A stretch of DNA of 64,000 nucleotides from assembly GCA_964521285.1 (NCBI GenBank), contig CAZFQS010000012.1, positions 15,683 through 79,682 of the forward strand, written 5' to 3'. Shown piece by piece: positions 2,494-59,196 of the stretch; the first letter of the stretch is position 1, and the number at the start of each line of letters is the position of its first letter. The DNA comes from an uncultured Bacteroidales bacterium (lineage in GTDB: Bacteria > Bacteroidota > Bacteroidia > Bacteroidales > UBA10428). A program made the translations under genes and the position numbers. The notes beneath the pieces were generated by a model, which was given only the letters and a program-made list of their open reading frames with translations, did no database searches and was not told where the DNA came from.

Positions 2494-2534
2494 GATATAA
2501 ATAACTGAATATATCATAATAACTCCGGCAACTA

Positions 2535-5741: not shown

Positions 5742-5744
5742 AAT

Positions 5745-5780
5745 AAAAAACCCAATAATACCTGTTAAAGCATTATCGGG
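5745..5780 (-). terminator. Rho-independent terminator for the 5818..6783 gene
   Basis: The minus-strand RNA reads CCCGAUAAU-12 nt loop-AUUAUUGGG followed directly by UUUUUU. The single imperfect position is a G-U wobble only in the minus-strand transcript. Confidence 0.55.
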
Positions 5781-5817
5781 CAGTAAAGATTTTTATCCTT
5801 AATCTTAACTATCTAAA

Positions 5818-6783: not shown

Positions 6784-7023
6784 GGTATTTATTTTTAAGT
6801 TTAGAAAATGATTATTTCAAATAACTGAAATTAACATCTGTCTTAGGCTCTTCAATGCTATTCTATTAACAAATTTAAGCTAATATTTTCTTTTAGTCAA
6901 CCGTCTGGCGTAATTAATTGATTTTTGAAAATGGTAGTTTTATTTTCTATATTTATCATGATAAGCTATTAGTTTAATAAAAAATGATCATTTATTTAAT
7001 TAAAATAAAAAAACAAGTATAAA

Positions 7024-8259: not shown

Positions 8260-8281
8260 TAATGAATTAATTGTTAATGAA

Positions 8282-33826: not shown

Positions 33827-36800
33827 TTAAATGTTAATAAAGATGTTTTGTGCTTTTCTTTTTCCGGCATACCGGGATGGCAATATATTAAATTCGGTTT
33901 TGAAGTACTTAGCGAAGTATTTTGGATTATTGAAACCTACCTCATAAGCTATTTCCGAAACAGTTAACTGGCTTTTTTCAAGGAGACGGGCAGCTCTTTT
34001 CAACCTGATTATCCGGATAAACTCAATAGGTGTCTTTCCTGTCAGAGATGATAATTTTTTATACAAATGCACCCTGCTCATTCCCAGCTCGTTACTTAAC
34101 TCTTTAACAGAAAAATCAGGATTTGATATATTATTTTCAACTATTGCCAGTGCTTTTTGTATCAACTTTTCATCAAGAGAAGTGATGCTTATTTCTTTTG
34201 GAGTGATTTGTATGTGTTTGAGGTAGTTTTTACGCATCGATTCCCTGATTGTAATAAGGTTTTTTATACGAGACTGAAGTATTTCGAAATTAAAGGGTTT
34301 TGTGATGTAGTCATCAGCGCCGGTGTTAAATCCCTCAATCTTTTCCTTATCTCCTGCACGGGCAGTAAGAAGGATTACAGGGATATGAGATGTGCGCTGT
34401 TCACTTTTTACTTTACGGCACAGTTCTATTCCATCCATTTCAGACATTAGTATGTCACTAACAATTAGGTCAGGAATAACATTAAGGGTTTTTTCCCAGC
34501 CTTCTTTGCCACTGTCGGCCTCGATAATGTTATAATATTGTTTGAGGTTATCCTTAAGGTAGAACCTGAAATCGTGATTATCCTCTACAAGCAGGATCAA
34601 TGGTTTTTTATTGTTAATATTTATATTTTCCTGCTGTCTGGTTACTTTTTTCTGTTCAGCATTTTCATCAGCGGGCAGTTCCAGATTTGCGGACAACTGA
34701 TCTTTAATATAATCATCAGCATTTTTCACGGGTAGCAGAACGGAAAAGCTGGTGCCTTTATCAGATTCCCCTTTTAGGGAAATAGTACCTCCATGGAGTT
34801 TTACAAATTCTTTTGTTAATGCCAATCCAATTCCGCTTCCTTTGTTGACGGCAGAGCCCGGTACCAAATTCTGAAAGAACCTGTCAAATATTTTGTTATG
34901 TTTATCTTCAGGTATTCCTATACCGGTATCACTTACTATGATATTCAGTAACTTTGAATTTTTCCCGGGGTCGTTGTTGGAATTAACCAAACTTATATTG
35001 ACTGTTATACTTCCATGCTCAGGTGTAAATTTAAAAGCATTGGAAAGCAGGTTAAACATTATTTTTTCCAGTTTATCCTGATCAAAGAGCATTTCCAGTC
35101 CATTAACTTGTGACTGTATTGAAAAATTAATTTTTTTCTTTTCAGCAAGGTCAGTAAATGATTCTGCAGTATCCTTTATATAACTTATTATGTCACCTTC
35201 AACAGGATTATAAGTGAATTCCTCAACTTCCATTTTTCTGAAATCAAGCAACTGATTTACCAGGTTCAGGAGTCTTCTGACATTACGTGATATTAACAAA
35301 AACTGGCGCTTCTGTTCGGGATTTTTCGTACTTTTCATCATCTTATCAAGGGGAGAAGCAATTAAAGAAAGGGGAGTTCTTAACTCATGACTTACGTTTG
35401 TGAAAAATTTTATTTTCATCATATCGAGCTCATGCATGTGTTTAGCTTCCTGTCTTTCCTGCTGGATCCTGTGATTCATTCTTTCCCTTTCAAGAATAAG
35501 TCTCCGTGAGAATAACAGGATACCAATTATAAAAACGGCGTATATGATAAAAGCTACAGGGGTTTTCCAGAATGGCGGTAAAATTTTTATTTTTAGGCTC
35601 GCACCTTCTTCATTCCAATACCCGTCATTATTGCTTGCTTTAACTTTAAAAACATATTCTCCGGGATCAAGATTTGTGAATGTTGCTTTTCGCTGGCTTC
35701 CATCTGTTGTCAGCCAGTCTGTGTTAAAGCCTTCAAGAATATAAGCATAACTGTTTTTCCCCGGGTGGGAATAGCTTAGTGCTGCAAATTCAATAGAGAA
35801 TACATTCTCTCTGTATTTTAATACTATTTCCCTTGTAAGTGTTATAGATTGTTTGAGAACGACTCTGCCATTTGCCTTTTCATTAACACCTATGCTTTTA
35901 TTAAAAATTTGAAAATCTGTAAATACAAGTTCGGGAACAATAGTATTCTTCTTTATATCATCAGGATGAAAGATATTAAATCCGTTTGGACCCCCAAAAA
36001 TCAATTCTCCCCGGCTTGTTTTACAGGCTGCGTTTTCATTAAATTCCCTGTCCTGTAGTCCATCGGTTTCGTCATAATTTTTAAAACTGAATGTATATTC
36101 ACTATCATTTATATTCTTGCTGATTAATAAGTTTGAGAGACCATTTGGTGTACTAATCCAGAGATTACCATTATTATCTTCCAGAATTGATGAAATTGTA
36201 TTATCAGGTAATCCGTCTTCCATCCTGAATACCATGGATGTTTGATCTTTCCTGTTAAAAAGATTCAACCCTTCCCTTGTACCAACCCATATAAGTCCGC
36301 GCATATCCTCTATAATTGCAATAATATTATTATTACTTATGCTCCTGTGATTATCCAAATCATGTGTATAATGAGTAAAAATACCTGTTTGTTTGTCAAG
36401 AAAATCTATGCCATGAGCACTCCCGATCCATAAATTTCCGTCCCTGTCTTCAATAATTGATGAGATAAAGTCTGAATGTATTGAGTTAGCCTGGTCGCTC
36501 CTGTGATGTATAAACACATCATTTCTGTGATCAAATCTATCAAGACCTCCGCCCAGTGTTCCAATCCATAGATTTTTTTCGGAGTCCTCAAATATTTCCC
36601 ATACTCTGTCATCAGACAGGCTTTGGGGATCTGAGGGGTTATGCAGGTAATGTTTGAATTTTTTCCCGTCAAAGCAGTTTAATCCACCGTAGTAGGTTCC
36701 AATCCATAGATTTTGCAAATGATCTATGCATAAACTTACAATTATATCATTGCTTATGCTGTTCTTGATATCCGGATCATGCAAATACCTGGTAAACCTG

Positions 36801-38044
36801 TTATTGTCACAGTTATAAAAGAGCAGCCCACCTCCGTTTGTCCCTATCCACAGATTACCTTTGGCATCTTCGGCAAAGCAATTAACATCATCATAGCTAA
36901 GACTAAAAGGATCTGATGCCTGATTTTTGAATAGGCGAAATTTGAAAATATCTTCATTGTAGTAATTAATGCCTTTTTTAAATGTGCCAATCCACATAAT
37001 GCCCAAATCGTCCTTGAATAAGGAGGTGATACTGTTTTGACCAAGACTTTTATCATCTTCATTATTGTGAGTAAGATATTTAAATGTAAAGGTTTTCTTA
37101 TCCAAAAGATTGATACCTCCGTGATCAGTACCAATCCATATAAGTCCGTTATTATCCTGTGCAACACCTCTTACAATATTAGTATTTAAGTTAACGGCAG
37201 GTGATCCCTCCTGAAAGTGCCTAAAGGACTGCCGGGAAACATCAAAATAAAATATACCTCTTGCATAGTTAGACACGTAAATCCATAAATCTTCATCCGC
37301 ATCAACAAAAAGATCATATTCAAGATACTCACCCTTGTATCTGTGGTACAGAAAATCATTCCTGTAGATAATTCTGTGATTTTTGTAATCCATTTTTTCC
37401 AGCATGCCATTATGATGCACTATCCAGAAATTATTTTGCGGTCCTTCACAAATATCAGCAATGTAATCTGTTGCTATGGAGTTGCTGTCATTTGCATTGT
37501 GATTGATATTGGCAATGGTATTTGTTTGAATGTTATATTTGTAGAGACTGGTTTCAGAACTTATAAACCAGTAGTTGCCCTGATTATCCCTCAATATATC
37601 ACTCAGGGATTCATCCTGAATATTTAATGATCTTAAAAAAGCGGACGGGTCCCGGTTGAAAGTCTCTGTAAGCGGATCATAAATGTTAAATCCGCTTCGT
37701 GTTCCGACCCATAGTCTGCCAAGATGGTCCTCGAAGAGATCCCAGATAAAATTATCACTTATCGATGTTGTATCGCGGAGATCATGTCTGAAGATTTTAA
37801 AACTGTACCCGTCAAACCTGTTCAATCCTGACATGGTACCAAACCACATAAATCCCATATTGTCTTTAAGAATGCAGTTTATTTGATTATTTGACAGGCC
37901 GTTGTTAATATCGATACGGGAAAATTTGAAATTAGTGGGCTGGGATATGTGATCAAATACTGCAAAAAACAATAACACAAATACAAAAAGAATTTTGCGG
38001 TACACTGAAATAATTTTATGCAGCGAATCTCTAAAACTAATCAT
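33827..38044 (-). CDS. Hybrid two-component system regulator (propeller/Y_Y_Y sensor, HisKA, HATPase, receiver, AraC HTH)
   Basis: 1405 aa. Propeller repeats, Y_Y_Y (YAYILEGFNTDW...YVFKVKASNNDGYWNE) and a TM helix. H-box NVSHELRTPL, ATPase GSGIGLALTKEFVKLHGG, receiver LLVEDN...IVSDILMSEMDG, and a C-terminal AraC-type HTH. Confidence 0.92.
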   Translation of the reverse strand: MISFRDSLHKIISVYRKILFVFVLLFFAVFDHISQPTNFKFSRIDINNGLSNNQINCILKDNMGFMWFGTMSGLNRFDGYSFKIFRHDLRDTTSISDNFIWDLFEDHLGRLWVGTRSGFNIYDPLTETFNRDPSAFLRSLNIQDESLSDILRDNQGNYWFISSETSLYKYNIQTNTIANINHNANDSNSIATDYIADICEGPQNNFWIVHHNGMLEKMDYKNHRIIYRNDFLYHRYKGEYLEYDLFVDADEDLWIYVSNYARGIFYFDVSRQSFRHFQEGSPAVNLNTNIVRGVAQDNNGLIWIGTDHGGINLLDKKTFTFKYLTHNNEDDKSLGQNSITSLFKDDLGIMWIGTFKKGINYYNEDIFKFRLFKNQASDPFSLSYDDVNCFAEDAKGNLWIGTNGGGLLFYNCDNNRFTRYLHDPDIKNSISNDIIVSLCIDHLQNLWIGTYYGGLNCFDGKKFKHYLHNPSDPQSLSDDRVWEIFEDSEKNLWIGTLGGGLDRFDHRNDVFIHHRSDQANSIHSDFISSIIEDRDGNLWIGSAHGIDFLDKQTGIFTHYTHDLDNHRSISNNNIIAIIEDMRGLIWVGTREGLNLFNRKDQTSMVFRMEDGLPDNTISSILEDNNGNLWISTPNGLSNLLISKNINDSEYTFSFKNYDETDGLQDREFNENAACKTSRGELIFGGPNGFNIFHPDDIKKNTIVPELVFTDFQIFNKSIGVNEKANGRVVLKQSITLTREIVLKYRENVFSIEFAALSYSHPGKNSYAYILEGFNTDWLTTDGSQRKATFTNLDPGEYVFKVKASNNDGYWNEEGASLKIKILPPFWKTPVAFIIYAVFIIGILLFSRRLILERERMNHRIQQERQEAKHMHELDMMKIKFFTNVSHELRTPLSLIASPLDKMMKSTKNPEQKRQFLLISRNVRRLLNLVNQLLDFRKMEVEEFTYNPVEGDIISYIKDTAESFTDLAEKKKINFSIQSQVNGLEMLFDQDKLEKIMFNLLSNAFKFTPEHGSITVNISLVNSNNDPGKNSKLLNIIVSDTGIGIPEDKHNKIFDRFFQNLVPGSAVNKGSGIGLALTKEFVKLHGGTISLKGESDKGTSFSVLLPVKNADDYIKDQLSANLELPADENAEQKKVTRQQENININNKKPLILLVEDNHDFRFYLKDNLKQYYNIIEADSGKEGWEKTLNVIPDLIVSDILMSEMDGIELCRKVKSEQRTSHIPVILLTARAGDKEKIEGFNTGADDYITKPFNFEILQSRIKNLITIRESMRKNYLKHIQITPKEISITSLDEKLIQKALAIVENNISNPDFSVKELSNELGMSRVHLYKKLSSLTGKTPIEFIRIIRLKRAARLLEKSQLTVSEIAYEVGFNNPKYFAKYFKTEFNILPSRYAGKRKAQNIFINI

Positions 38045-38278: not shown

Positions 38279-38305
38279 GTAACACGAAATTTAATATAGT
38301 AACAC
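38279..38305 (+). promoter_or_regulatory. Candidate NikR operator 1 (GTAACAC-N13-GTAACAC), abutting the nikR start codon
   Basis: Sequence GTAACACGAAATTTAATATAGTAACAC with an exact heptamer repeated at 20-bp phasing. It is 21/27 identical to the element at 38725-38751. Confidence 0.35.
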
Positions 38306-38306
38306 T

Positions 38307-38708
38307 ATGTCAGTAATTAGATTTGGCGTCTCACTGGAAGAGCATTTAATGGGTGCTTTAGACAAATATGTTATTGAAAATAAGTTTCCCAACAGATCAC
38401 GTGCTATAAGAAATCTGATTGAAAAGAATATTGTTGAAAAGAAGTGGAAGTGTAACAACGAGGTTGCAGGAGCAATAGTATTGCTTTATGATCACCATAA
38501 AAGGGATATCACAAATAAAACCAACAGTGTTCAGCACGATTATCATAAATTTGTATTATCAGCGCAACATGTTCATCTTGACCATGATATGTGCCTGGAA
38601 ACAATTGTTGTTAAGGGAAAAGCAAAGCAATTGACAGAGCTTGCAGATAAGTTGATTGCAATCAAGGGAGTGCAACACGGCAAACTTGTTATGACAAAAA
38701 CAAATTAA
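38307..38708 (+). CDS. nikR: Nickel-responsive transcriptional regulator NikR
   Basis: 133 aa. N-terminal ribbon-helix-helix (IRFGVSLEEHLMGALDKYV...NRSRAIRNLI) and a C-terminal metal-binding domain with HVHLDHDMCLE. Confidence 0.85.
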   Translation: MSVIRFGVSLEEHLMGALDKYVIENKFPNRSRAIRNLIEKNIVEKKWKCNNEVAGAIVLLYDHHKRDITNKTNSVQHDYHKFVLSAQHVHLDHDMCLETIVVKGKAKQLTELADKLIAIKGVQHGKLVMTKTN

Positions 38709-38724
38709 TTTTTTTTCAATAATA

Positions 38725-38751
38725 GTAGCACGAAAATTAAAAAATTAACAT
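38725..38751 (+). promoter_or_regulatory. Candidate NikR operator 2, 15 nt upstream of the TonB-dependent receptor start
   Basis: Sequence GTAGCACGAAAATTAAAAAATTAACAT, with the same 20-bp half-site phasing and the shared CACGAAA core. Confidence 0.35.
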
Positions 38752-38766
38752 TTAACTAATTAAAAA

Positions 38767-40668
38767 ATGAAAAAAATATCAGGCTTAACCGGTTTGATTA
38801 TTTTCACAGGACTTATCACATCAGCACAGATTCTCGATGATACGATATCTCTGGAAGAAGTTGTTGTAACCGGAACAAAAGTTGAGGTTTCGAGAAAAAA
38901 CATACCCTTGACAGTTTCAGTAATTAAAAGTGAAGAAATTGAGCAAAGTGATGAATCAGCTCTTTTACCTATAATTAGTGAAAGAGTGCCGGGTGTTTTT
39001 ATTACAGAACGTGGAATAACCGGATTTGGGGTGTCCACCGGGGCAGCAGGTCAAATAAACATACGTGGGTTAGGAGGTTCGCCCACGACCCAGGTTTTAA
39101 TTTTAATTGACGGCAATCCGCAATTTATGGGCATGATGGGTCATCATTTGCCTGATGCTTATGTTGCGTCGGATGTTGAAAAAGTGGAAATAATTCGTGG
39201 TCCTGCTTCAATATTATATGGGTCAAATGCTATGGGTGGTGTTATAAACATTATTACAAAAAAACAGGTTGAAGATGGCATTAAATTTAATTCAAGGATT
39301 TTATATGGATCGTACAACACTCAAAAATACATGGGCAAAGTGGGATTTAAGAAGAAGGGATTTAATGTTTTTTGCTCAGTAAATCATGACAGAACAGATG
39401 GTCACAGGGACTCATCAGATTTTAAGATAACAAACGGTTATATTAAGGCAGGTTATGATATTAGTAATATATGGAAAGTGTCAGCTGATTTGTCTCTGGC
39501 GAAATTCAAAGCTTCTGATCCTGGCCCCGAGTCAGGTATAGCAGGTGAAATGATAGATATACTAAGGGGTAAAACAGCGTTATCTGTTCAAAATAATTAC
39601 AGGAATATAAAAGGAGCTCTTCATTTATATTACAATTTTGGCGAGCATGATATAACTGATGGCTGGCATTCAAATGATGTGCTCTATGGATTAATGGTAT
39701 ACCAGGGATTTAATTTAATTCAGGGCAACACTGTTACCATCGGATATGATAAAATGATTTACGGAGGCAAGGGACATCCTATAATTGCTGTATTACGTGA
39801 TGAAGACGGAAATATAATTCGAGGACCTGAAGGCCCTCAATTCGTATTGGCTGAAAATGATAATAAATGGGTGACTATGACACATGATGCAGTATATTCA
39901 TTTATACAACAGACTTTGTTTGAAAAATTAATTATTAACGGAGGCTTAAGATATGAAATGAATTCATATTACGGGAATGAGTTTATACCGCAGGCAGGTT
40001 TTGCTTATCATTTAAGTGAACTGACAAGTTTTAAAGGATCCGTATCAAAGGGATACAGGCCACCGTCTATCAGAGAATTGTATTTTTTCCCTACTGCCAA
40101 CAATAAACTCGAACCAGAAAAAATGATTAATTATGAACTGGGATGGGAGCAGGACTGGATGAATAACAGGATACACACAGAAATAACAGGTTTTTTATGT
40201 AAAGGTGACAATCTTATAGTCAAGGTACCTGATGTAGCTCCGCCTCCGCCCCAGTATAAAAACACAGGGAAATTTCAGAATTATGGCATAGAAGTCGCAT
40301 GGAATTACAGTCCGGTTACCAGTCTTAAGTTAAGCGGCAACTATACCTTTATTAATATGAAGAAGAAATTAATAGCCACACCCGAACATAGCTTATTTTT
40401 ATCAGGTAATTATCATTGGCAAAAATTTATATTTAATCTGAAATTGCAGACCATTATTAATCTATATGGGGAAAATCAGAATGGGGCAATCGATATTATT
40501 GAGAATAACTATTTCTTATTGGGAACAAAAATTAGTTACAGGGCATTAAAATATCTTAGTATTTTCTTAAGCGGGGAAAACCTGCTTAATCAGGATTACC
40601 AGATGCTTTATGATTATCCTATGCCAGGAATTAGTTTTATGTCAGGTTTAAATATCAAACTGAATTAA
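38767..40668 (+). CDS. TonB-dependent outer-membrane receptor (small, non-SusC type), probable metal/metallophore uptake
   Basis: 633 aa. Signal peptide, plug region (LEEVVVTGTKVE..., IRGLGGSPTTQVLILIDGNP, VEIIRGPASILYGSNAMGGVINIITK) and a 22-strand-sized barrel. Confidence 0.85.
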   Translation: MKKISGLTGLIIFTGLITSAQILDDTISLEEVVVTGTKVEVSRKNIPLTVSVIKSEEIEQSDESALLPIISERVPGVFITERGITGFGVSTGAAGQINIRGLGGSPTTQVLILIDGNPQFMGMMGHHLPDAYVASDVEKVEIIRGPASILYGSNAMGGVINIITKKQVEDGIKFNSRILYGSYNTQKYMGKVGFKKKGFNVFCSVNHDRTDGHRDSSDFKITNGYIKAGYDISNIWKVSADLSLAKFKASDPGPESGIAGEMIDILRGKTALSVQNNYRNIKGALHLYYNFGEHDITDGWHSNDVLYGLMVYQGFNLIQGNTVTIGYDKMIYGGKGHPIIAVLRDEDGNIIRGPEGPQFVLAENDNKWVTMTHDAVYSFIQQTLFEKLIINGGLRYEMNSYYGNEFIPQAGFAYHLSELTSFKGSVSKGYRPPSIRELYFFPTANNKLEPEKMINYELGWEQDWMNNRIHTEITGFLCKGDNLIVKVPDVAPPPPQYKNTGKFQNYGIEVAWNYSPVTSLKLSGNYTFINMKKKLIATPEHSLFLSGNYHWQKFIFNLKLQTIINLYGENQNGAIDIIENNYFLLGTKISYRALKYLSIFLSGENLLNQDYQMLYDYPMPGISFMSGLNIKLN

Positions 40669-40714
40669 AATACTTTCCTGAAGAATATTAGATAATACCA
40701 GATATTTACAAAAA

Positions 40715-42169
40715 ATGAGAAAGACGGTCCTGCTACTAGTTATAATCTTAACAATTTCAAACTGCGAAATTGTTGCTCACTCAGGCAAGCCACAGTACTA
40801 TATTATTATAGATACCGATTGTGCCATTGATGATTTAAGGGCAGTTACTTTACTGCTGGCTTCATCAAAGGTGCAAGTTCTTGGTATTACAACATCAGAT
40901 GGAACCCTTGATCCTGCGAACGGACAGATAAAAGTTGAATCACTTTTAGGGGATTATCATCATGAGGGTATTCCTGTTGCCAGTGGGGAAAGAGTATTGG
41001 AAAATCCGCCTGAATGGAGGGATTTAAATAACAATATATTATGGGGCAAAGAAGAATTAACGGGAAATAATGGTAATAACTTAAATGCAAGGGATTTTAT
41101 AATTGAGGCTGTTAAAAGTGAAAAAGAGCCGGTAACTATGATTTGTCTTGGTAGTCTTTCAAATATTTCACATGCAATACAGAAGGATGATAGTATCAGG
41201 AAACAAATACAAAGAATAATCTGGTTTAACAAAACCCCTGATATTTTTAACGGCACAAATTATCGGTTCGACAAAAAATCTGCAGACTATGTTCTTAACT
41301 CAGGTATTAACATTGATATTGTTACAAATCCGGATAAAGATATATTTAAGATTGATAATATTCTTATGGACAGTATATCAAAGATAAATTCAATTTATGC
41401 AAATAAAGTATTTGAGGTTCATCAGCAAAAGGATTTGAAAAACTCAACACATCAAGGATATAAAAGCCTGTGGGATGATTTGGTGCCTGTTTACCTTATG
41501 TCTTCAATGACTTTTACAATTGATAGTTCTTCTGAATATGATAATGTAAGAATGGTTACTCCTGTTGATCTAAGCCAGATAAATACACAAATTATTGATA
41601 TTCTGAATGTTAATAAAAATGTTAGCAGTAAAATATTTCTGGGTTTCCCGGCTGACCCTGAACTTTTCCAGGAAGATGTTGCTGAAGTTATGAATGAAAT
41701 AATTCGCAAACATAGCCTTGAAGAATGGAAAATTGGAGTATTGGCAAACGAACTGCACGGTCATCTCGGAATTTATGCGATCATAGGAGTTAAGATGGGA
41801 TTAAGGGCAAGAGAGTTTTTTAACATAGGGATAGATGATATTAAGATTGTTACATATGCCGGAAGAAAACCTCCCTTAAGCTGTATGAATGATGGATTAC
41901 AGGCAAGTACCGGAGGAACACTGGGACACGGACTGATTTTTCTGGCAGATGACAGCAGAACGATGCCAATGGCCCTTTTTTCATATAAAGACAGAACAGT
42001 CTTAATTAAACTAAAAGATGAATATGTGAATATTGTAAGAAATGATATTATGAAATGTATTTCAGAGCACGGAGATTTAACTGAGCCATACTGGAGCTGT
42101 GTGAGGAGACTTGCTATAGAATACTGGCTGGAGTGGGACAGAAATATTATATTTGATTTGGAATATTAA
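40715..42169 (+). CDS. Exported fusion protein: inosine-uridine nucleoside-hydrolase-like domain + FmdE-like domain
   Basis: Signal/lipoprotein-like N-terminus (LTISNC). IIIDTDCAIDDLRAV matches the DTDxxxDD Asp cluster of IUNH folds and MICLGSLSNISHAI the second IUNH block. In the C-terminal ~130 aa, LHGHLGIYAIIGVKMGLRA and SCMNDGLQASTGGTLGHGLI match FmdE-family blocks (HGHxCPG; CxxDxxQxxTGCTxGK) with the Cys residues replaced. Confidence 0.55.
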   Translation: MRKTVLLLVIILTISNCEIVAHSGKPQYYIIIDTDCAIDDLRAVTLLLASSKVQVLGITTSDGTLDPANGQIKVESLLGDYHHEGIPVASGERVLENPPEWRDLNNNILWGKEELTGNNGNNLNARDFIIEAVKSEKEPVTMICLGSLSNISHAIQKDDSIRKQIQRIIWFNKTPDIFNGTNYRFDKKSADYVLNSGINIDIVTNPDKDIFKIDNILMDSISKINSIYANKVFEVHQQKDLKNSTHQGYKSLWDDLVPVYLMSSMTFTIDSSSEYDNVRMVTPVDLSQINTQIIDILNVNKNVSSKIFLGFPADPELFQEDVAEVMNEIIRKHSLEEWKIGVLANELHGHLGIYAIIGVKMGLRAREFFNIGIDDIKIVTYAGRKPPLSCMNDGLQASTGGTLGHGLIFLADDSRTMPMALFSYKDRTVLIKLKDEYVNIVRNDIMKCISEHGDLTEPYWSCVRRLAIEYWLEWDRNIIFDLEY

Positions 42170-42184
42170 TGAAAGGAGTTTTTT

Positions 42185-42898
42185 ATGAGTGACCAGATTT
42201 TAGTTTTAGCGATTAATGCAGCATCTATTGGTTTTATACATACTGTCCTGGGCCCCGATCATTATTTGCCTTTTATTGTATTGTCAAAGGCTAGAAGGTG
42301 GTCAGGTTTCAAGACAGCAATAATAACATTTCTTTGCGGATTAGGGCACGTTGGCAGTTCTATCTTGGTTGGCGCTGTTGGTATTGTATTTGTCCTTGGC
42401 CTTTCAAAAGTTGAGGGAATAGAAGTTATTCGTGGAGATATTGCTGCCTGGGCCTTTATTGTTTTTGGATTTCTCTATATGATATGGGGCTTGATACGGG
42501 CAATAAGGAATAAACCACATAAACATTCTCATTTACATAGTGGGGGAGTTGTTCATGAACATGTGCACACACATTCGGAAGATCATGATCATGTTCATAA
42601 GGGTGAAAAAGCCGTAAGCTTAACTCCCTGGGTGTTATTCATTATTTTTGTGCTGGGCCCCTGTGAGCCATTGATACCTTTGGTAATGTATCCGGCTGCA
42701 AATCATAATATGTTGGGAGCTATTACAGTATCCCTGATATTTGCAGTTACTACAATAGTGACAATGCTTGTTATAGTGTTACTGCTTACTTACGGATTAA
42801 AAGCATTACCTTTTGGAAGGCTGGAAAGATATACCCATGCCATAGCAGGAGCTACTATATTTTTAAGTGGCTGTGCCATTGTTTTGCTTGGATTGTAG
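42185..42898 (+). CDS. NicO/RcnA-superfamily nickel/cobalt permease with central His-rich loop
   Basis: 237 aa, ~6 TM. GFIHTVLGPDHYLP in TM1 (compare the HxxxPGH/HxxxxDH motifs of Ni/Co transporters). Cytoplasmic loop HKHSHLHSGGVVHEHVHTHSEDHDHVH, with VLGPCEPLIPL in the following TM. Confidence 0.6.
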   Translation: MSDQILVLAINAASIGFIHTVLGPDHYLPFIVLSKARRWSGFKTAIITFLCGLGHVGSSILVGAVGIVFVLGLSKVEGIEVIRGDIAAWAFIVFGFLYMIWGLIRAIRNKPHKHSHLHSGGVVHEHVHTHSEDHDHVHKGEKAVSLTPWVLFIIFVLGPCEPLIPLVMYPAANHNMLGAITVSLIFAVTTIVTMLVIVLLLTYGLKALPFGRLERYTHAIAGATIFLSGCAIVLLGL

Positions 42899-42907
42899 AA
42901 GCAGCTA

Positions 42908-43444
42908 TCAGATTCTTTCATAAATACAGAAAGTATAATCAAAAGTATTCATGTTGTCCCTTTTGTTTTGTATTTCAGATACTAATTTCCAGTCAGATTT
43001 ATCCAGTTCGGGATAGAACACATCTCCTTCAATTATTGCATGAATCCGTGTAAGATAAATTCTGTGGGTAATAGTAATTGACTGTTCATAAATGGTGCCT
43101 CCCCCGACAATAAAAACTTCTTTCTCTTTTTTCCCCCGGGGGATATCCAGGGCCTCTTTCAGGGAATGAACAATAATTCCGTCCTCTATTTTAAATTTCC
43201 TGTTCCTTGTAATTACTATGTTTATTCTTTCCTTAAGGGCTTTTCCTTCAGATTCATAGTTCTTTCTTCCCATTATTACGTAGTGCCCCTTTGTTATCCT
43301 GTTAAAATAGGCCATGTCGGCGGGCATTCGCCAGGGCAGTTTATTATTTTTCCCGATTACATTATTTTCTGATACGGCAACAATATGTGAAATTATCATG
43401 TTAAGCTGGGGTTTGATTTGTGTAATTTGTTTATATTCTGCCAA
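42908..43444 (-). CDS. folA: Dihydrofolate reductase
   Basis: VAVSENNVIGKNNKLPWRMPADMAYFNRITKGHYVIMGRKNYES and FIVGGGTIYE blocks. The true start is probably the internal Met (MIISHIVAV). Confidence 0.9.
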   Translation of the reverse strand: MAEYKQITQIKPQLNMIISHIVAVSENNVIGKNNKLPWRMPADMAYFNRITKGHYVIMGRKNYESEGKALKERINIVITRNRKFKIEDGIIVHSLKEALDIPRGKKEKEVFIVGGGTIYEQSITITHRIYLTRIHAIIEGDVFYPELDKSDWKLVSEIQNKRDNMNTFDYTFCIYERI

Positions 43445-43568: not shown

Positions 43569-45938
43569 ATGACTCGTAAAATAACCGTTTTTTTTATAAT
43601 AAATATTTTTGTCATAAGCTTCTATGCCCAGGAATACAGACTTAGTGGATATATATATGATTCTATTACAAGTAATGTTTTAACAGGAGCTTCAATATAC
43701 ATTAAGGGGACTTCACCTGGTACAGTCAGTAATAATAATGGTTATTATTCAATTTTACTAAAGGATGGGGAAAATACAATTATTGTATCTTATCTGGGAT
43801 ATAAGTCAGTTGAAAAGACAATAAAAACAGCCACCAATATTAGCATGGACTTTTATCTTAAGCCCGGGGTTATAAGTACGGGTGAGGTAGTGGTTTCAAC
43901 AAAGGATCCAAGAACTAATATAGAAAGTGCTGAAACAGGAATTATTCAGCTGTCAGGAAAAGAGATTGAGCGACTACCTGCTCTTATGGGAGAAGCAGAT
44001 CCTCTAAGAGCTTTACAGTTAAATCCGGGCGTTCAGTCTGCAAGTGAAGGGGTTAGCGGCTATTATGTCAGAGGAGGGGGAACGGATCAAAACCTTATAT
44101 TGCTGGATAATGCTACGGTCTATAATCCTTCTCATGTCCTGGGCTTTTTTTCTGTATTTAATACGGATGCGATCAGAAGTGTAAAATTGATAAAATCAGG
44201 TATACCGGCAAACTATGGGAGCCGGCTGTCTTCAGTTATTGAAATTACAGGCAAAGAAGGGGATTTTAAGAATTACTCAACCAAAGGGAGTATCGGGTTG
44301 ATTTCCTCAAAAATATCATCACAGGGTCCTGTTTTTAAGAACAATAGCTCATTTCTTGTTTCATACCGGAGATCCTATATTGATGAGGTTCTCAAACCAT
44401 TAATCAGACCCCTGGTCAAAGGCTCTTCCTCATTTTATAATTATAGCCGGTATTATTTCTATGATGCCAGTGCCAAGCTAACCTGCAAGATCAATCGAAA
44501 TAATAAACTTTCTTTAACTTATTATAAAGGAAGAGATGATTATGAGCTTGAACGTAATCAGCTAAACTATAAGAATAACCTTAACTGGGGTAATATGGTC
44601 GCATCACTAAACTGGAACCATATTTTCAATGAAAACTGGTATTGCCGGAACAGCATAAGTCTATCAAAATATCAGTTCAGTTTTTCGGCACAACAAAGAG
44701 AAATTAAAATCGGGTTATTTTCAGGCATAGAGGATATAAATTATAAAATAGACTTTAACAGGATTAATATCAATGGAAATGTAATAAGATTTGGAGTTGA
44801 TTATCAATATCATAATTTTATTCCTAATAATATTGATGCAGTTACAAGTGATTTAAACCTGAAATTTGGTGCAAACCAGAACCTTTATTCTCATGAATCA
44901 GCTGTATATATTGCAAATGAAACATCTTTAACAAACAGGCTGAAAATAAATTCTGGATTGAGACTGACAGGCTTTTTACATGTCGGGCCATATGAAGAAT
45001 ATATAAGAGACTACAATAATGAAATTACAGACACTTTTACATATAAATCAGGAGAATTAATAAAACCCTATTTTAATCTGGAGCCAAGAGTATCCTTAAG
45101 ATATTTGCTTAGTGATAATTCTTCTGTCAAGGCTTCTTTTACTACCAGCTATCAATATATTCATCTGGCAACGGCGTCGTCAGTAACATTGCCAACTGAT
45201 ATCTGGTTACCCAGTACAAAAAGAATTAAACCTCAGAAAGGTATGCAGATCTCTGCAGGATATTTTATAAATATGTTTGAAAACTTAGTTACAGGCTCTG
45301 TTGACATATATTATAAGGATTTTAGGAACCAGATTGAACTTTTATACGGCATAGTCAACGATTATAGTGATAACATATTTGAGGAAAGCATAACATTTGG
45401 CAACGGACAATCTTACGGAATAGAATTACTCTTACGAAAACAAAAGGGTAAGGCTACCGGATGGTTAGGTTATACCCTGGGAAAAACCACAAGACAATTT
45501 AATGAAATAAATGAAGGAGATATATATCCTGCCAAATATGACAGAAGGCATGATATAAACCTGGTATTATCCTATGAACTTAATGGTAAATGGACTTTCG
45601 CATCAACATTTATATATGCCACAGGTAATGCCATGACATTACCTGTAGGAAAATATATCATTGAAGGACAAGTTATAAATGAATATGGCAGGACAAATTC
45701 CTTCCGGATGCCTGCATATCACAGACTTGATTTGTCAGTTACCTATCTGGCTAAAAAGACAGACAAATTTGAATCCAGCTGGAATTTCTCTGTTTTCAAT
45801 GTTTACAGCAGGTCAAATCCCTTTTATATTTATTTTGAGATCAGGGAAGACATTTCTAACTACTATCTTGAAATAAATGCAAAACAGATTTCCCTATTTC
45901 CGGTAATGCCTTCATTGACATGGAGTTTCAGATTCTAA
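43569..45938 (+). CDS. TonB-dependent receptor with CarboxypepD_reg-like N-domain
   Basis: 789 aa. LSGYIYDSITSNVLTGASIYIKGTS, a plug (LRALQLNPGVQSASEG...YVRGGGTDQNLILLDNATVYN), and a barrel ending ...LTWSFRF. Confidence 0.8.
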   Translation: MTRKITVFFIINIFVISFYAQEYRLSGYIYDSITSNVLTGASIYIKGTSPGTVSNNNGYYSILLKDGENTIIVSYLGYKSVEKTIKTATNISMDFYLKPGVISTGEVVVSTKDPRTNIESAETGIIQLSGKEIERLPALMGEADPLRALQLNPGVQSASEGVSGYYVRGGGTDQNLILLDNATVYNPSHVLGFFSVFNTDAIRSVKLIKSGIPANYGSRLSSVIEITGKEGDFKNYSTKGSIGLISSKISSQGPVFKNNSSFLVSYRRSYIDEVLKPLIRPLVKGSSSFYNYSRYYFYDASAKLTCKINRNNKLSLTYYKGRDDYELERNQLNYKNNLNWGNMVASLNWNHIFNENWYCRNSISLSKYQFSFSAQQREIKIGLFSGIEDINYKIDFNRININGNVIRFGVDYQYHNFIPNNIDAVTSDLNLKFGANQNLYSHESAVYIANETSLTNRLKINSGLRLTGFLHVGPYEEYIRDYNNEITDTFTYKSGELIKPYFNLEPRVSLRYLLSDNSSVKASFTTSYQYIHLATASSVTLPTDIWLPSTKRIKPQKGMQISAGYFINMFENLVTGSVDIYYKDFRNQIELLYGIVNDYSDNIFEESITFGNGQSYGIELLLRKQKGKATGWLGYTLGKTTRQFNEINEGDIYPAKYDRRHDINLVLSYELNGKWTFASTFIYATGNAMTLPVGKYIIEGQVINEYGRTNSFRMPAYHRLDLSVTYLAKKTDKFESSWNFSVFNVYSRSNPFYIYFEIREDISNYYLEINAKQISLFPVMPSLTWSFRF

Positions 45939-45944
45939 ATTTAT

Positions 45945-46847
45945 GTGGTTATGAGTGTAAGTATTAATATTAACAGTTTAATTTATAGATTATTAAGAGT
46001 TACTTTTTTCCTGATAGTTGCAAGTACTGCCCAGTTTTGTGAAAAGGAATTAAGCATTGAATTGCCTCAACCTGAGAGTAAAATAGTTGTTGAGGGATGG
46101 ATTGAAGACGGAGGATATCCCAATGTAATATTAACACGCAGCGCTCCTTACTTTTCATCCATAGATTCAGGTTCACTGAGAGATTATGTTGTCACAAAAG
46201 CAAAAGTGACAATAGTTACGGGTGATCAGTACGAAGTTCTTACCCTTAAACCCAATGATGCATATTTTCCGCCTTATGTATATTTTGGCAGTGAGCTCCG
46301 GGGTGAAGTACAGGGAACATATCATCTCAAGGTAGAATTTGAGGACAGTGATAATAATGTATATGCTTCAACGTCCATTCCTGAATTAACTGAACCTGAT
46401 AGTGTGTGGTTTCAGCTTGAACCCGGATCCGATAGCCTTGGTCGTATCTGGATCAAATTATCTGATAATCCGGGTGAAAACAATTATTACCGGTTATTAA
46501 CCAGAAGAAAAGGAAAAGATAAACGCTATGTTGCCAGTTTTAAATCAGCTTTCAGTGATAAATTGTTTAATGGTGAGACTATTGTCCAGGGTTTTAACAG
46601 GGGACTTTCAGATTTGCTGGATTTTACCCGGGATAATTTGTTCAGGCTGGGGGACACTATAAGTGTGAAATTTTGTTCTTTAGATAAAGAGCATTATGAA
46701 TTCTGGAATACTTATCAAAATGAAATTTTATTATCAGCCAATCCTTTTTCGGCCAGTAATGCAAGGGTAAGAAGCAATATACAGAATGGCCTTGGTATCT
46801 GGGGTGGATATGCTGCCAGCTACCATACGGTTATAGCAAAAAAGTAA
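45945..46847 (+). CDS. DUF4249-like protein, the usual partner of this TBDR type
   Basis: Starts 7 nt after the TBDR stop. The C-terminal NIQNGLGIWGGYAAS resembles the conserved DUF4249 ending. The start is GTG 45945 or ATG 45951. Confidence 0.55.
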   Translation: MVMSVSININSLIYRLLRVTFFLIVASTAQFCEKELSIELPQPESKIVVEGWIEDGGYPNVILTRSAPYFSSIDSGSLRDYVVTKAKVTIVTGDQYEVLTLKPNDAYFPPYVYFGSELRGEVQGTYHLKVEFEDSDNNVYASTSIPELTEPDSVWFQLEPGSDSLGRIWIKLSDNPGENNYYRLLTRRKGKDKRYVASFKSAFSDKLFNGETIVQGFNRGLSDLLDFTRDNLFRLGDTISVKFCSLDKEHYEFWNTYQNEILLSANPFSASNARVRSNIQNGLGIWGGYAASYHTVIAKK

Positions 46848-51461: not shown

Positions 51462-51500
51462 ATTGCTCTATTGTTCTATTGCTATATTGTTTTATTGCTC
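51462..51500. repeat. 16-bp tandem repeat (about 2.4 copies), left arm of an inverted repeat bracketing hypAB
   Basis: ATTGCTCTATTGTTCT / ATTGCTATATTGTTTT / ATTGCTC. It begins 1 nt after the arsC stop and runs into the last codons of hypB. Confidence 0.6.
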
Positions 51501-52306
51501 ATCTTTTTCAGCCAGTTATACCATTTGTCAATTCCCTGTCCTGTTTTAGCAGAAAGCTCAATAAATTGCAGGTGGTGATTTACCCTTAATGCATATTCTC
51601 TGGTTTTGTCAATATCAAATTCAACATAAGGGAGTAAATCTATTTTATTAATAACGCACAGATTCGAACTTTGGAACATGTAAGGATATTTTAAAGGCTT
51701 ATCTTCGCCTTCAGTAACGCTTATTATTACAACTCTGAAATTTTCACCCAGGTCAAATAAAGCAGGGCATACCAGATTCCCCACATTCTCGATCATCAGA
51801 ATTGAATTATCGTTAATTTTCAATTCTTTTACAGCACTATTTATCATTTCTGCATCAAGATGGCATCCGAAGCCTGTATTTATCTGAACTACAGGCACTC
51901 CTGTTGCTTTAATCCGGCTCGCATCGTTCATGCTCTGTTGATCACCTTCTATGACTGAGAAAGCAATGTTTTTTGAAAGATCCTTAATAGTTTTTTCAAG
52001 TATGGTTGTTTTACCTGATCCGGGAGAACTAACAAGGTTAAGAGCTAAAATATTCTTAGCCTGAAAGTACCCGCGGTTTCTTTCAGCTAAAAGATTGTTC
52101 TTATACAATACATCCTGTTCAATTTCAATTTTTCTGTTATGATCATGAGAATGATTATGAGCATGAGTATGATCATGTTCATCCATGTGCTTATGTTCAT
52201 GGCTGTCATGCCCATGAGCATTGGAATCATTCCGGTTGCCAATATCTTCCGGCTTTATTATCGTATATTCTGAATTCGAATCGTTACAACCACATGTATC
52301 ACACAT
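51482..52306 (-). CDS. hypB: Hydrogenase/urease nickel-incorporation GTPase HypB
   Basis: N-terminal MCDTCGC high-affinity site, His-rich tract HGHDSHEHKHMDEHDHTHAHNHSHDH, P-loop SSPGSGKTT and ENVGNLVCPA. Confidence 0.9.
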   Translation of the reverse strand: MCDTCGCNDSNSEYTIIKPEDIGNRNDSNAHGHDSHEHKHMDEHDHTHAHNHSHDHNRKIEIEQDVLYKNNLLAERNRGYFQAKNILALNLVSSPGSGKTTILEKTIKDLSKNIAFSVIEGDQQSMNDASRIKATGVPVVQINTGFGCHLDAEMINSAVKELKINDNSILMIENVGNLVCPALFDLGENFRVVIISVTEGEDKPLKYPYMFQSSNLCVINKIDLLPYVEFDIDKTREYALRVNHHLQFIELSAKTGQGIDKWYNWLKKMSNKTI

Positions 52307-52384: not shown

Positions 52385-52726
52385 TTAATCGACATTAATT
52401 GATTTGACCCGCAATTCCCTTCCGTTTATAATTTCAAAATCAAATGAACTGCACACAGGACATTTTGCAATAAGATCTGAAGGTTTAAATTCAGTATTGC
52501 AGTTATTACATTTCGCCCTGGCCTTGATTCTGTTAATAATAATTTTTGCATTTTCAAGGAGGGTGTTTTTTACGGCAGATTCCAGCGCAAATTCCAGGGC
52601 TTCAATTACTACTCCTGAAAGGATACCAACCTCTATCTCTACTTCGTTAATTTTTGTTGCACTTGCATCTGTTGCTGTTTTTGAAGCAATATCAACAATA
52701 TTTAAAGCAATTGAAAATTCGTGCAT
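52385..52726 (-). CDS. hypA: Nickel insertion metallochaperone HypA
   Basis: 113 aa. MHEFSIA N-terminus (MHE nickel site) and a zinc ribbon CNNC...CPVC. Confidence 0.9.
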   Translation of the reverse strand: MHEFSIALNIVDIASKTATDASATKINEVEIEVGILSGVVIEALEFALESAVKNTLLENAKIIINRIKARAKCNNCNTEFKPSDLIAKCPVCSSFDFEIINGRELRVKSINVD

Positions 52727-58101: not shown

Positions 58102-59196
58102 CTATGACTCATTTTTGAAATACTCACCTAATATCAATTTTGCTGCGACAAATGAACTTAGCTTGTCATCAAGGACTTTCTTTTCATATTCGTCAAGAAG
58201 ATTTTTCATATTATAACTACTGTAGAATTTATCCTTGATATTTTGATTTATTGTTTCATATAACCAATAACGAGCTTGTTCTCTTCTTTGTTTTTCAAAG
58301 AAATTATTGTTAGTTGTAAATTGTCTATATTCCATGATCGTATCCCAGATTTTATCCAACCCTTCATTCTTTACTGAAGAGCATGTCATAACTTTTGGTG
58401 TCCATTCTGATTCCATGGGAGGATAAAGGTGTAATGCGTTTTCATAATCCTTTTTTGCTCTTTCAACATTTTTAATATTATTTCCATCTGCTTTTGTAAT
58501 TACAATTAAATGAGCCATTTCCATTATACCCCTTTTAATACCTTGCAACTCATCACCAGCCCCTGCTAACATTAATAAAAGAAAAAAATCAACCATAGAA
58601 TGCACGGCAGTCTCTGACTGGCCTACGCCAACGGTTTCAACAAATATTGTATCATATCCGGCTGCTTCACAGAGAATTATAGTCTCCCTGGTTTTTCTGG
58701 CAACACCTCCAAGTGTACCTGCAGATGGTGAAGGTCGAATGAACACATTTGGATCACCTGAGAGAAGTTCCATACGCGTTTTATCTCCCAGAATACTTCC
58801 TTTTGTGCGTTCACTACTCGGATCTATGGCCAGTATAGCCAGTTTGTGGTTACTTCCGGCCAGCTTTAAACCCAAAGCTTCAATAAATGTACTTTTTCCT
58901 GCACCAGGGACACCGGTAATGCCGATTCTCATCGATTTACCTGAACGAGGCATACATTTCTCAATAATCTCCTGTGCTATCTTATAATGATCTGGTAATT
59001 TGCTTTCTATAAGGGTTATGGCCTGACTTAAGATGGCACGGTTTCCATCCAGTATTCCTCTGACGAATTCATCAACAGTAAATATCTTCTTCTTTTTTTG
59101 TTTTAGTATTTTGACTGCATTTTTGTTTATTGAAGGAGGCTGTGGTATCTCATCATTGATGGTCAGGGTGTTTTTATGCTTTTCTTTTTTTTTCAT
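58102..59196 (-). CDS. meaB: MeaB/ArgK-type G3E GTPase (methylmalonyl-CoA mutase chaperone family)
   Basis: P-loop GVPGAGKST, LAILAIDPSS, ETVGVGQSE and ITKADG. Confidence 0.85.
   Translation of the reverse strand: MKKKEKHKNTLTINDEIPQPPSINKNAVKILKQKKKKIFTVDEFVRGILDGNRAILSQAITLIESKLPDHYKIAQEIIEKCMPRSGKSMRIGITGVPGAGKSTFIEALGLKLAGSNHKLAILAIDPSSERTKGSILGDKTRMELLSGDPNVFIRPSPSAGTLGGVARKTRETIILCEAAGYDTIFVETVGVGQSETAVHSMVDFFLLLMLAGAGDELQGIKRGIMEMAHLIVITKADGNNIKNVERAKKDYENALHLYPPMESEWTPKVMTCSSVKNEGLDKIWDTIMEYRQFTTNNNFFEKQRREQARYWLYETINQNIKDKFYSSYNMKNLLDEYEKKVLDDKLSSFVAAKLILGEYFKNES

Follow-up and report, generated by a model that had tools for sequence, protein, structure and literature searches.

A probable NikR-repressed, TonB-dependent nickel import operon of Bacteroidales that encodes an exported nucleoside hydrolase-like/FmdE fusion protein

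NikR-controlled uptake of nickel through a TonB-dependent receptor (TBDR) is known from Helicobacter pylori, and transporters encoded next to nikR as well as small His-rich nickel permeases are familiar from other bacteria. Very little is known of how Bacteroidota import nickel, though gut Alistipes and Odoribacter have urease and many Bacteroidales encode hydrogenase maturation genes; a 2009 census recognized a nickel transporter in 1 of 30 Bacteroidetes genomes, 6 of which use nickel (PMC2667541). Here, we analyzed a four-gene locus (positions 38307 to 42898) in a 64-kb stretch of DNA from an uncultured Bacteroidales bacterium, referred to below as the window. The locus encodes NikR, a small TBDR, an exported fusion of an IU-nucleoside hydrolase-like domain and an FmdE domain (Fus), and a His-rich permease. 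Judging from its sequence, this locus probably serves nickel import through a TonB-dependent receptor under repression by NikR. Gene content, operator-like sites, conservation and genomic associations were observed; what the receptor carries, what Fus does and which way the permease transports were deduced from them by comparison, and the role of Fus is less certain than nickel uptake itself.

The four open reading frames (ORFs) follow one another on the + strand, and a six-frame ORF list confirmed the coordinates and the spacers of 58, 46 and 15 nucleotides (nt) given by the initial annotation. The first gene, nikR (38307..38708, + strand), encodes a 133-aa protein assigned as a nickel-responsive ribbon-helix-helix repressor. 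It matched NikR_C (PF08753; 106.5 bits, cutoff 22) and the NCBIfam equivalog NF003381 (157 bits, cutoff 105), and it aligned over its full length with the NikR of Pyrococcus horikoshii, 2BJ1 (120 bits), with the nickel site QH..HVH.D..C (His/His/Cys plus an upstream His) in register between the two proteins. The N-terminal ribbon-helix-helix domain (PF01402) scored 19.5 bits, just below the cutoff of 20.5, and residues 1 to 50 were included when the whole protein was aligned with solved NikR proteins. By these sequence criteria, the first gene encodes a bona fide NikR.

Two NikR operators were predicted in the locus. O1 (38279..38305, + strand; GTAACAC-N13-GTAACAC) ends 1 nt before the nikR ATG, and O2 (38725..38751, + strand; GTAGCAC-N13-TTAACAT) is located in the nikR-receptor spacer, 16 to 42 nt upstream of the receptor ATG. 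O1 was the sole zero-mismatch NikR site in the 64 kb, and a degenerate pattern spanning both operators occurred at exactly 2 sites in the window, compared to 0.02 expected from shuffled sequences. Beyond O1 and O2, no NikR site with two mismatches or fewer was found anywhere in the window. The half-sites of both operators match those of the published NikR consensus, GTGTTAC-[N13/14]-GTAACAC, which was derived for delta-proteobacteria and for which a reversed half-site orientation was described in one species (PMC545781). The left half-site also sits within a small palindrome of its own, TTCGT-N3-ACGAA.

Because Fus is the most distinctive component of the locus, we used it as the anchor for comparison with other genomes. 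A scan of GTDB species representatives yielded 254 Fus relatives, the best 80 of which were examined together with loci obtained by exact-protein look-up; contexts were counted over the 72 nonredundant loci with enough upstream sequence (loci are designated by L numbers). Many of these loci are contigs of metagenome-assembled genomes (MAGs), and the shadow ORFs produced by ORF calling in high-GC Alistipes were discounted. The order nikR-receptor-Fus-permease was found in at least eight divergent Bacteroidales loci (L001 to L004, L034, L056, L081 and L092), so the arrangement is kept outside this genome. Variants of it are L005, which reaches a contig end, L006, in which nikR and the receptor gene are inverted, and L079, which lacks the receptor. 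In the four-gene and variant loci, the identity of Fus to the window protein ranges from 72% down to about 41%. Furthermore, nikR-receptor-Fus without the permease occurs in another phylum, Aminicenantes.

Across the 72 loci, a TBDR is encoded directly upstream of Fus in 44, nikR is present in 14, a NikR box in 18, and the permease gene directly downstream of Fus in 12, while a nickel link of some kind was found in 24. Stand-alone Fus genes also occur, in Aminicenantes and others (L086, L088, L095, L096, L007 and L014), and their contexts are uninformative. The conserved core is the TBDR-Fus pair, with NikR and the permease as frequent extras. The self-contained pathway suggested in the initial annotation is not a fixed four-gene set.

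The predicted operators are conserved along with the genes. A phylogenetic footprint identified a block, TTATATTCGTnnCACGAA...AGTAACACnATG, that is kept in L001 to L004 and L081, while the DNA further upstream has diverged. The nikR-receptor spacer carries GTAACAC-N13-TTAACAC in L001 to L003 and a more degenerate form in L004; L081 has the nikR-upstream site only. The same two-operator layout was found in L092, with an O2-like site GTAACAC-N13-ATAACAC, and the inverted locus L006 has two NikR boxes, too. In two Aminicenantes lineages, the nikR-receptor spacer holds a perfect inverted GTGTTAC-N13-GTAACAC (L082/L083 and L090/L091; e.g., L082 1314-1340). Over about 1 Mb of related loci, the density of NikR boxes with two mismatches or fewer in the 300 nt preceding an operon's first gene was 26-fold that of the remaining sequence, and such boxes also precede receptor-Fus pairs without an adjacent nikR (L035, L037 and L059). 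A box between the receptor gene and Fus in L019/L084 was discounted on account of its 2 mismatches and its overlap with the start of Fus. Taken at the sequence level, this layout suggests that NikR regulates its own gene as well as the receptor operon.

The second gene (38767..40668, + strand) encodes a TBDR of 633 aa. Its N terminus carries a signal sequence and a TonB-box-like SLEEVVVTG, both recognized by eye, followed by a plug (PF07715, 74 bits) and a 22-strand-type barrel (PF00593, 129 bits). No NCBIfam receptor subfamily reached its cutoff (TonB-siderophore, 133 of 223; TonB-hemin, 128 of 317; TonB-B12, 128 of 600), and the closest solved structures were BtuB and Cir, with the match confined to the plug. 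Of the 44 loci with a receptor gene directly upstream of Fus, most have an orthologue of this receptor there. Altogether, Fus is partnered with three unrelated receptor lineages, namely, the 633-aa type, a CarboxypepD_reg type directly upstream of Fus (L019 5574-7907 and L084 7583-9916) and a type found in B12 operons (L066, L067 and L076), which argues that Fus acts on the cargo and not as the structural partner of one receptor. In one Aminicenantes lineage (L090 7312-8004 and L091 2683-3375), the interval between nikR and Fus contains a gene for a 230-aa Plug-domain protein without a barrel, which overlaps the Fus start by 4 nt. The recurrence of this arrangement in two independent metagenomes makes an assembly artefact unlikely.

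The third gene (40715..42169, + strand) encodes Fus, an exported protein of 484 aa in which an IU_nuc_hydro domain (PF01156, 82 bits, residues 30-204) precedes an FmdE domain (PF02663, 51.4 bits, residues 347-480; cutoff 22.9). The alignment shows a hydrophobic signal followed, across phyla, by a nearly invariant A|HSGK (region of residues 21-25; the bar marks the predicted cleavage site). Mature Fus would accordingly begin with a His, which could serve as a metal ligand. In the window protein and its closest relatives, a Cys is present in the c-region of the signal, and these proteins could be lipoproteins instead; Fus would be exported in either case.

An AlphaFold2 model of Fus, built on a 20-sequence alignment, had a mean pLDDT of 85. 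Its N-terminal domain matched nucleoside hydrolases in Foldseek (E value of 1e-14, TM-score of about 0.7 on the target), and profile searches gave hits to 31 PDB sequences. A DxDxxxDD cluster (D33, D35, D39 and D40) is invariant, as are N182 and D254. In true nucleoside hydrolases, these residues hold a Ca2+ ion and the ribose diol, and in the enzyme of Crithidia fasciculata, His241 is the catalytic leaving-group residue and Glu166 binds the ribose 5'-OH. Alignments place an invariant W253 of Fus at the position of the leaving-group His and an invariant G180 at that of the 5'-OH-binding Glu. Furthermore, the NCBIfam nucleoside hydrolase equivalogs scored about a tenth of their cutoffs (RihA, 52.9 versus 433; RihC, 50.3 versus 382). 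Because of these two substitutions and scores, we did not file Fus as a nucleoside hydrolase.

The FmdE domain aligned with the solved protein 2GVI, with H348 and H350 of Fus corresponding to His16 and His18 and C390 to Cys61. The second FmdE motif is kept as well, D393, Q396 and T402 being invariant and aligned to 2GVI. FmdE crystal structures show the metal site on the floor of a large cleft, occupied by Zn or by a mixture of Zn and Ni, and their authors noted that genes for metal-ion transporters adjoin those of most FmdE homologues (PMC2954224). The most economical reading of the Fus sequence is that of a periplasmic binder of a metal or metal complex. The family is uniformly two-domain, with more than 1300 proteins recovered by a word-indexed search and 375 clusters at 50% identity by an exhaustive profile search (E ≤ 1e-30), and the nucleoside hydrolase-like domain is invariably fused to FmdE in at least 150 clusters at 50% identity. 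Databases annotate its members as "nucleoside hydrolase" or "pyrimidine-specific ribonucleoside hydrolase." Full-text literature searches combining FmdE with TonB-dependent, or nucleoside hydrolase with NikR and TonB, returned nothing, and we found no paper describing the fusion. This agrees with the earlier claim that known nickel importers have no component like the third gene.

The fourth gene (42185..42898, + strand) encodes a permease of 237 aa that matched PF13386 (DsbD_2; 29.3 bits, cutoff 24.9), a family that presumably carries the label UreH-like in InterPro. Six hydrophobic segments were recognized, with an invariant H19-x5-D25-H26 in transmembrane segment 1 (TM1), an invariant GPCE (within GPCEP) in TM4, and eleven invariant histidines in the His-rich TM3-TM4 loop; the H-x5-DH and GPCEP motifs are NicO-like. 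While the initial annotation correctly named NikR, the small TBDR, the exported fusion and a His-rich permease, its placement of the latter in the NicO/RcnA family (PF03824) was not upheld, as 0 of 20 family members matched that profile at E ≤ 1 and 19 of 20 matched PF13386. Names of homologues conflict by source ("nickel/cobalt exporter," "NicO," "TauE/SafE" and "RcnA"). No solved structure was found for the permease, and a search for annotated homologues on plasmids gave just two weak matches, both hypothetical proteins. From its context, the permease would be a Ni2+ importer. Import is favored because the permease gene follows Fus at 15 nt in the same orientation, within an operon that starts with an importer-only receptor, because this operon is under a repressor responding to nickel sufficiency, and because the permease gene is embedded in hyp maturation operons elsewhere. 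An exporter role would make the operon self-defeating.

Links to nickel enzymes were found in the window and in several other loci. The window carries genes for two nickel insertion chaperones, hypB (51482..52306, − strand; CobW/HypB/UreG domain, 77.5 bits) and hypA (52385..52726, − strand; HypA, 113 bits), 8.6 kb downstream of the cluster on the opposite strand, close to the 9 kb first noted. They are likely downstream users of nickel outside the operon, and the window scan at two mismatches or fewer found no NikR-box-like site upstream of them. In L062, the genes hypE-hypA-hypB-permease-Rex-like regulator-two ORFs-receptor-Fus are arranged on one strand (647-9449). The Rex-like regulator consists of Put_DNA-bind_N and CoA_binding domains, the two ORFs are unannotated, and the arrangement suggests that hydrogenase maturation genes may respond to redox state in addition to nickel. 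Additionally, a permease homologue adjoins hypA-hypB in L093, and HypB-like genes are located 3 to 5 kb from the cluster in L001 to L003 and L006.

Urease genes provide another such link. In L033, an Alistipes MAG, the receptor-Fus pair immediately precedes ureA-ureB-ureC-ureE-ureF-ureG-ureD, and a urea transporter gene comes after ureD. Urease genes are also present within L044 (Odoribacter laneus YIT 12061), L048, L050 and L051, and the terminal urea transporter gene of urease-type operons in L040, L043 and L052, the last of these from Alistipes sp. i18-0019-D1. The urease, hyp and NikR links represent three separate kinds of nickel association. Two further ORFs of L033 were considered and set aside. 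One, x159, in the interval between Fus and ureA, gave no hit in Pfam and was absent from all other loci; visual inspection suggests a shadow ORF facing a small convergent gene, and a hairpin follows Fus. The other, x363, after ureD, had been a NiCoT candidate and is the urea transporter gene. The same locus gave an Rfam match to the H. pylori family 5_ureB_sRNA (11263-11555, − strand; 69.6 bits), antisense to the start of Alistipes ureC. As ureC encodes the α-subunit and is the counterpart of H. pylori ureB, this match is probably due to the conserved coding sequence of urease instead of a real small RNA.

Nickel uptake by such an operon could proceed as follows. When cytoplasmic nickel is sufficient, Ni-NikR would bind O1, abutting the nikR start codon, and O2, in the nikR-receptor spacer, and switch the operon off. 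When nickel is scarce, the 633-aa receptor would carry it over the outer membrane, either as free ion or as a small complex. In the periplasm, Fus would receive the nickel, most likely at the His-x-His/Cys/His site of its FmdE-like domain, and the nucleoside hydrolase-like domain, with its retained Asp cluster, may bind a second metal or a carrier molecule. The His-rich 6-TM PF13386 permease would then transfer Ni2+ to the cytoplasm, where HypA/HypB could use it for [NiFe]-hydrogenase in the window organism and UreE/UreF/UreG/UreD for urease in Alistipes and Odoribacter.

Fus is also found in a second regulatory setting. In eight Alistipes loci (L065 to L068, L072, L074, L076 and L077), a cobalamin riboswitch (90 to 107 bits; Rfam and nhmmer profile) is followed by a DUF4465 gene, in some cases by a gene for either a PKD_3 protein or a different TBDR, and by Fus; the TBDR is present in L066 (Alistipes muris DSM 112343), L067 and L076. 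In L074, for example, the riboswitch spans 6603-6825, the DUF4465 gene 6958-7833 and Fus 8001-9383. Binding of B12 has been demonstrated for DUF4465, a domain of the BtuJ/BtuH type (PMC13398666). A crude neighbor-joining tree groups the B12-linked Fus proteins in a single derived subclade within the Alistipes clade, together with L055, whose flank is too short to show a riboswitch. On all deeper branches, Fus either stands alone or is accompanied by a receptor, NikR or urease genes. A nickel link and a B12 link were never found in one locus among the 72. The receptors of the B12 operons barely resemble that of the window (22 bits for L067; no match at E ≤ 1e-5 for L066). Further cobalamin riboswitches of Alistipes (L023 12193-12425, − strand; L025 11615-11844, − strand; L043 11949-12144, − strand; L075 9413-9621, + strand) are located 0 to 6 kb from Fus, on the other strand or downstream, each at the head of an operon of its own. 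In Alistipes, B12 uptake loci tend to lie near receptor-Fus pairs of the nickel type. The window itself has no riboswitch (Rfam at gathering thresholds and nhmmer riboswitch profile), and riboswitch control of its operon was rejected on these searches.

Several observations weigh against the nickel import reading. A Fus subclade sits in cobalamin riboswitch operons with B12-binding DUF4465 proteins, and the candidate ligand residues are all identical between NikR-linked and riboswitch-linked Fus. Fus is therefore probably not strictly nickel specific, and its chemistry may not be nickel-ion binding as such. Only three of the four FmdE ligands are kept, the fourth (Cys20, the Cys of FHGHxC) being replaced by an invariant Gly; an invariant H405 is found at the position of a Lys in 2GVI, and our guess is that it replaces the missing Cys ligand. 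The Bacteroidales operators are unusual in that both half-sites have the same orientation and do not form the inverted repeat of other NikR proteins, and most Alistipes receptor-Fus pairs have no recognizable NikR box at two mismatches or fewer. Moreover, 20 of the 72 Fus loci, in uninformative contexts, have neither receptor, nikR, NikR box nor permease. As to the permease, some sources label its homologues nickel/cobalt exporters, and the His-rich loop, predicted to be cytoplasmic by the positive-inside rule, fits import and export alike.

Among the rival explanations, it is unlikely, though with an appreciable chance, that the locus takes up nickel in the form of an organic complex (a nickelophore, or a macrocycle such as coenzyme F430 or a nickel corrinoid or porphyrinoid) and that Fus is a periplasmic enzyme or dechelatase freeing the nickel, with its paralogues in B12 operons doing the equivalent job on cobamides. 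The B12-linked subclade is the main reason why we retain this rival at a sizeable weight. The association of Fus with three receptor lineages suggests action on the cargo, the ligand and catalytic residues do not differ between the NikR-linked and riboswitch-linked clades, and the nucleoside hydrolase fold with its invariant DxDxxxDD, N182 and D254 is what a ligand-binding or catalytic pocket would keep. Additionally, the cleft of solved FmdE proteins measures 20 to 30 Å across around the metal and contained an unidentified ligand on the conserved Cys (PMC2954224), and all carriers are anaerobes of guts, digesters and sediments, habitats with methanogens. However, uptake systems for nickel macrocycles are not known, F430 lacks a ribosyl group that a nucleoside hydrolase-like pocket could bind, and the replacement of the general-acid His by Trp and of the 5'-OH-binding Glu by Gly makes hydrolase activity doubtful. 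The small secondary permease that follows Fus, in place of an ABC importer, suits the hand-off of a free ion, yet the same would be predicted after release from a complex. That Fus represents a new class of periplasmic metal-cofactor handlers behind TBDRs, serving nickel under NikR and cobamides under the riboswitch with the same active site, is a more speculative proposal to which we give a small probability. A shared active site would imply that the nickel systems import an organic macrocycle or chelate, such as F430 of methanogens, that is bound or stripped by Fus. If true, this would be the first nickel-tetrapyrrole uptake route and also the missing periplasmic step in cobamide uptake of Bacteroidota. 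That the window locus takes up cobalt or cobamides like its Alistipes relatives, with NikR as a mere neighbor, is very improbable. The eight riboswitch-DUF4465 loci, the plug-only resemblance of the receptor to BtuB, and the known switching of NikMNQO/CbiMNQO and NiCoT families between Ni and Co (PMC2667541) would fit it; the window, however, lacks a riboswitch and has NikR boxes at both promoters, the B12-linked proteins are a single derived subclade, nickel and B12 links never coincide in one locus, and the receptors of the B12 operons hardly resemble that of the window.

It is also improbable that the cluster serves nickel/cobalt detoxification, with the PF13386 protein as an RcnA-like exporter and the operon induced by Ni-NikR. 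Several sources do name close permease homologues "nickel/cobalt exporter" or "RcnA," a cytoplasmic His-rich TM3-TM4 loop is typical of exporters such as RcnA and CDF proteins, too, and H. pylori NikR is reported to be capable of activation in addition to repression (PMC3177205). Nevertheless, TBDRs import only, which makes cotranscription with an exporter incoherent, and the permease gene is found in a hypE-hypA-hypB operon and beside hypAB, that is, with nickel-consuming maturation genes. None of the 20 family members matched the NicO/RcnA Pfam profile, and the placement of the operators, over the start codon of nikR and no more than 45 nt from that of the receptor gene, is well suited to repression. 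Finally, database names, the fold and the retained Ca-binding Asp cluster might suggest an ordinary secreted nucleoside hydrolase for scavenging, placed here by coincidence; we regard this as highly implausible given the RihA-type scores far below cutoff (52.9 versus 433), the loss of the catalytic His and the ribose-binding Glu, the obligate FmdE fusion in at least 150 clusters, the receptor linkage in 44 of 72 loci and the NikR linkage across phyla. Overall, the NikR operators, the conserved gene order, the clustering with urease and hyp genes and the FmdE-type site speak for the nickel acquisition pathway proposed in the initial annotation, with the reservation that the Fus family is not nickel exclusive.

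The surroundings of the locus set the four genes apart. A divergent gene for a hybrid two-component protein of 1405 aa (33827-38044, − strand) lies upstream of nikR, and a convergent dihydrofolate reductase (DHFR) gene (42908-43444, − strand) lies downstream of the permease gene; with these borders, the four-gene block is a discrete unit. Searches of Pfam and NCBIfam found no NikABCDE, Nik/CbiMNQO, NiCoT or HupE/UreJ domains in the four proteins or their neighbors. A sigma-70 promoter and terminator scan gave no more than shuffled sequences, the sigma-70 model being inapplicable to Bacteroidota promoters. As listed, the DHFR ORF has a TTG start, 178 aa and a Pfam match from residue 18 onward, but its orthologue in L081 has 163 aa. 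The true start of the window gene is probably about 15 codons further downstream. Past the DHFR gene, a second receptor (CarboxypepD_reg, Plug and barrel) and a DUF4249 partner are encoded (43569-46847), and the same synteny is kept in L081 (12797-16097). A MeaB-type GTPase gene (58102-59196, − strand) is located 15 kb from the cluster. MeaB is a chaperone of the B12-dependent methylmalonyl-CoA mutase, and its presence indicates that the organism also uses cobamides.

Compared to described systems, the closest parallel in regulation is the NikR regulon of H. pylori (FrpB4/FecA3, ExbB-ExbD-TonB, NixA and NiuBDE). There, as predicted here, NikR represses a TBDR, and a separate inner membrane nickel importer feeds urease and hydrogenase via HypA/HypB. 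However, the H. pylori genes are scattered, whereas those of the window form one operon, the periplasmic component is the solute-binding protein NiuB, with no Fus-like protein, and the inner membrane importers are of the NiCoT or ABC type instead of PF13386. In Escherichia coli nikR-nikABCDE and in the delta-proteobacterial nikMNQO/nikKMLQO loci, nikR is located beside its target transporter genes, as in the window, and the delta-proteobacterial operators have the same half-sites and N13 spacing, matched perfectly in the Aminicenantes relatives (PMC545781). Unlike these systems, the window locus has no ABC or ECF parts, transport would start at the outer membrane, and the half-sites of Bacteroidales share one orientation.

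At the level of single components, the permease shares six TM segments, a length of about 230 aa, H-x5-DH, PC(E)P and a His-rich loop with the UreH, NicO-RcnA and HupE-UreJ permeases, which are also encoded beside nickel enzyme maturation genes. It differs from NicO in family membership (PF13386 in 19 of 20; NicO in 0 of 20). With the FmdE proteins 2GLZ, 2GVI and 3D00 (PMC2954224), Fus has in common the α+β core and the HGH and C-x2-D-x2-Q-x5-T motifs. Unlike them, it is exported, its FmdE domain stands behind a nucleoside hydrolase-like domain and lacks the C-terminal zinc finger, and Gly takes the place of the third ligand, Cys, of FHGHxC, and His405 that of the 2GVI Lys. The Bacteroides BtuB-BtuG-BtuH/J operons resemble the window operon in combining a small TBDR with dedicated accessory proteins, but the window lacks the riboswitch and the BtuG, DUF4465 and BtuFCD genes. 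Fus is absent among the Btu proteins described in recent reviews of the Bacteroides Btu system.

What is new is a compact operon spanning both membranes, the PF13386 permease in that role in Bacteroidota and, above all, the exported nucleoside hydrolase/FmdE protein, which belongs to no described nickel or cobamide system. The locus is a concrete candidate for a nickel route from the outer membrane to the cytoplasm, and it gives a first functional context to the widespread Fus family, about 375 clusters at 50% identity misannotated as nucleoside hydrolases. As Fus is found under both NikR and the cobalamin riboswitch, it could also be an unrecognized periplasmic part of cobamide uptake in gut Rikenellaceae. 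If so, the duality by which NikMNQO/CbiMNQO and NiCoT transporters are split between NikR and B12 riboswitches and switch between Ni and Co (PMC2667541) would extend to outer membrane systems.

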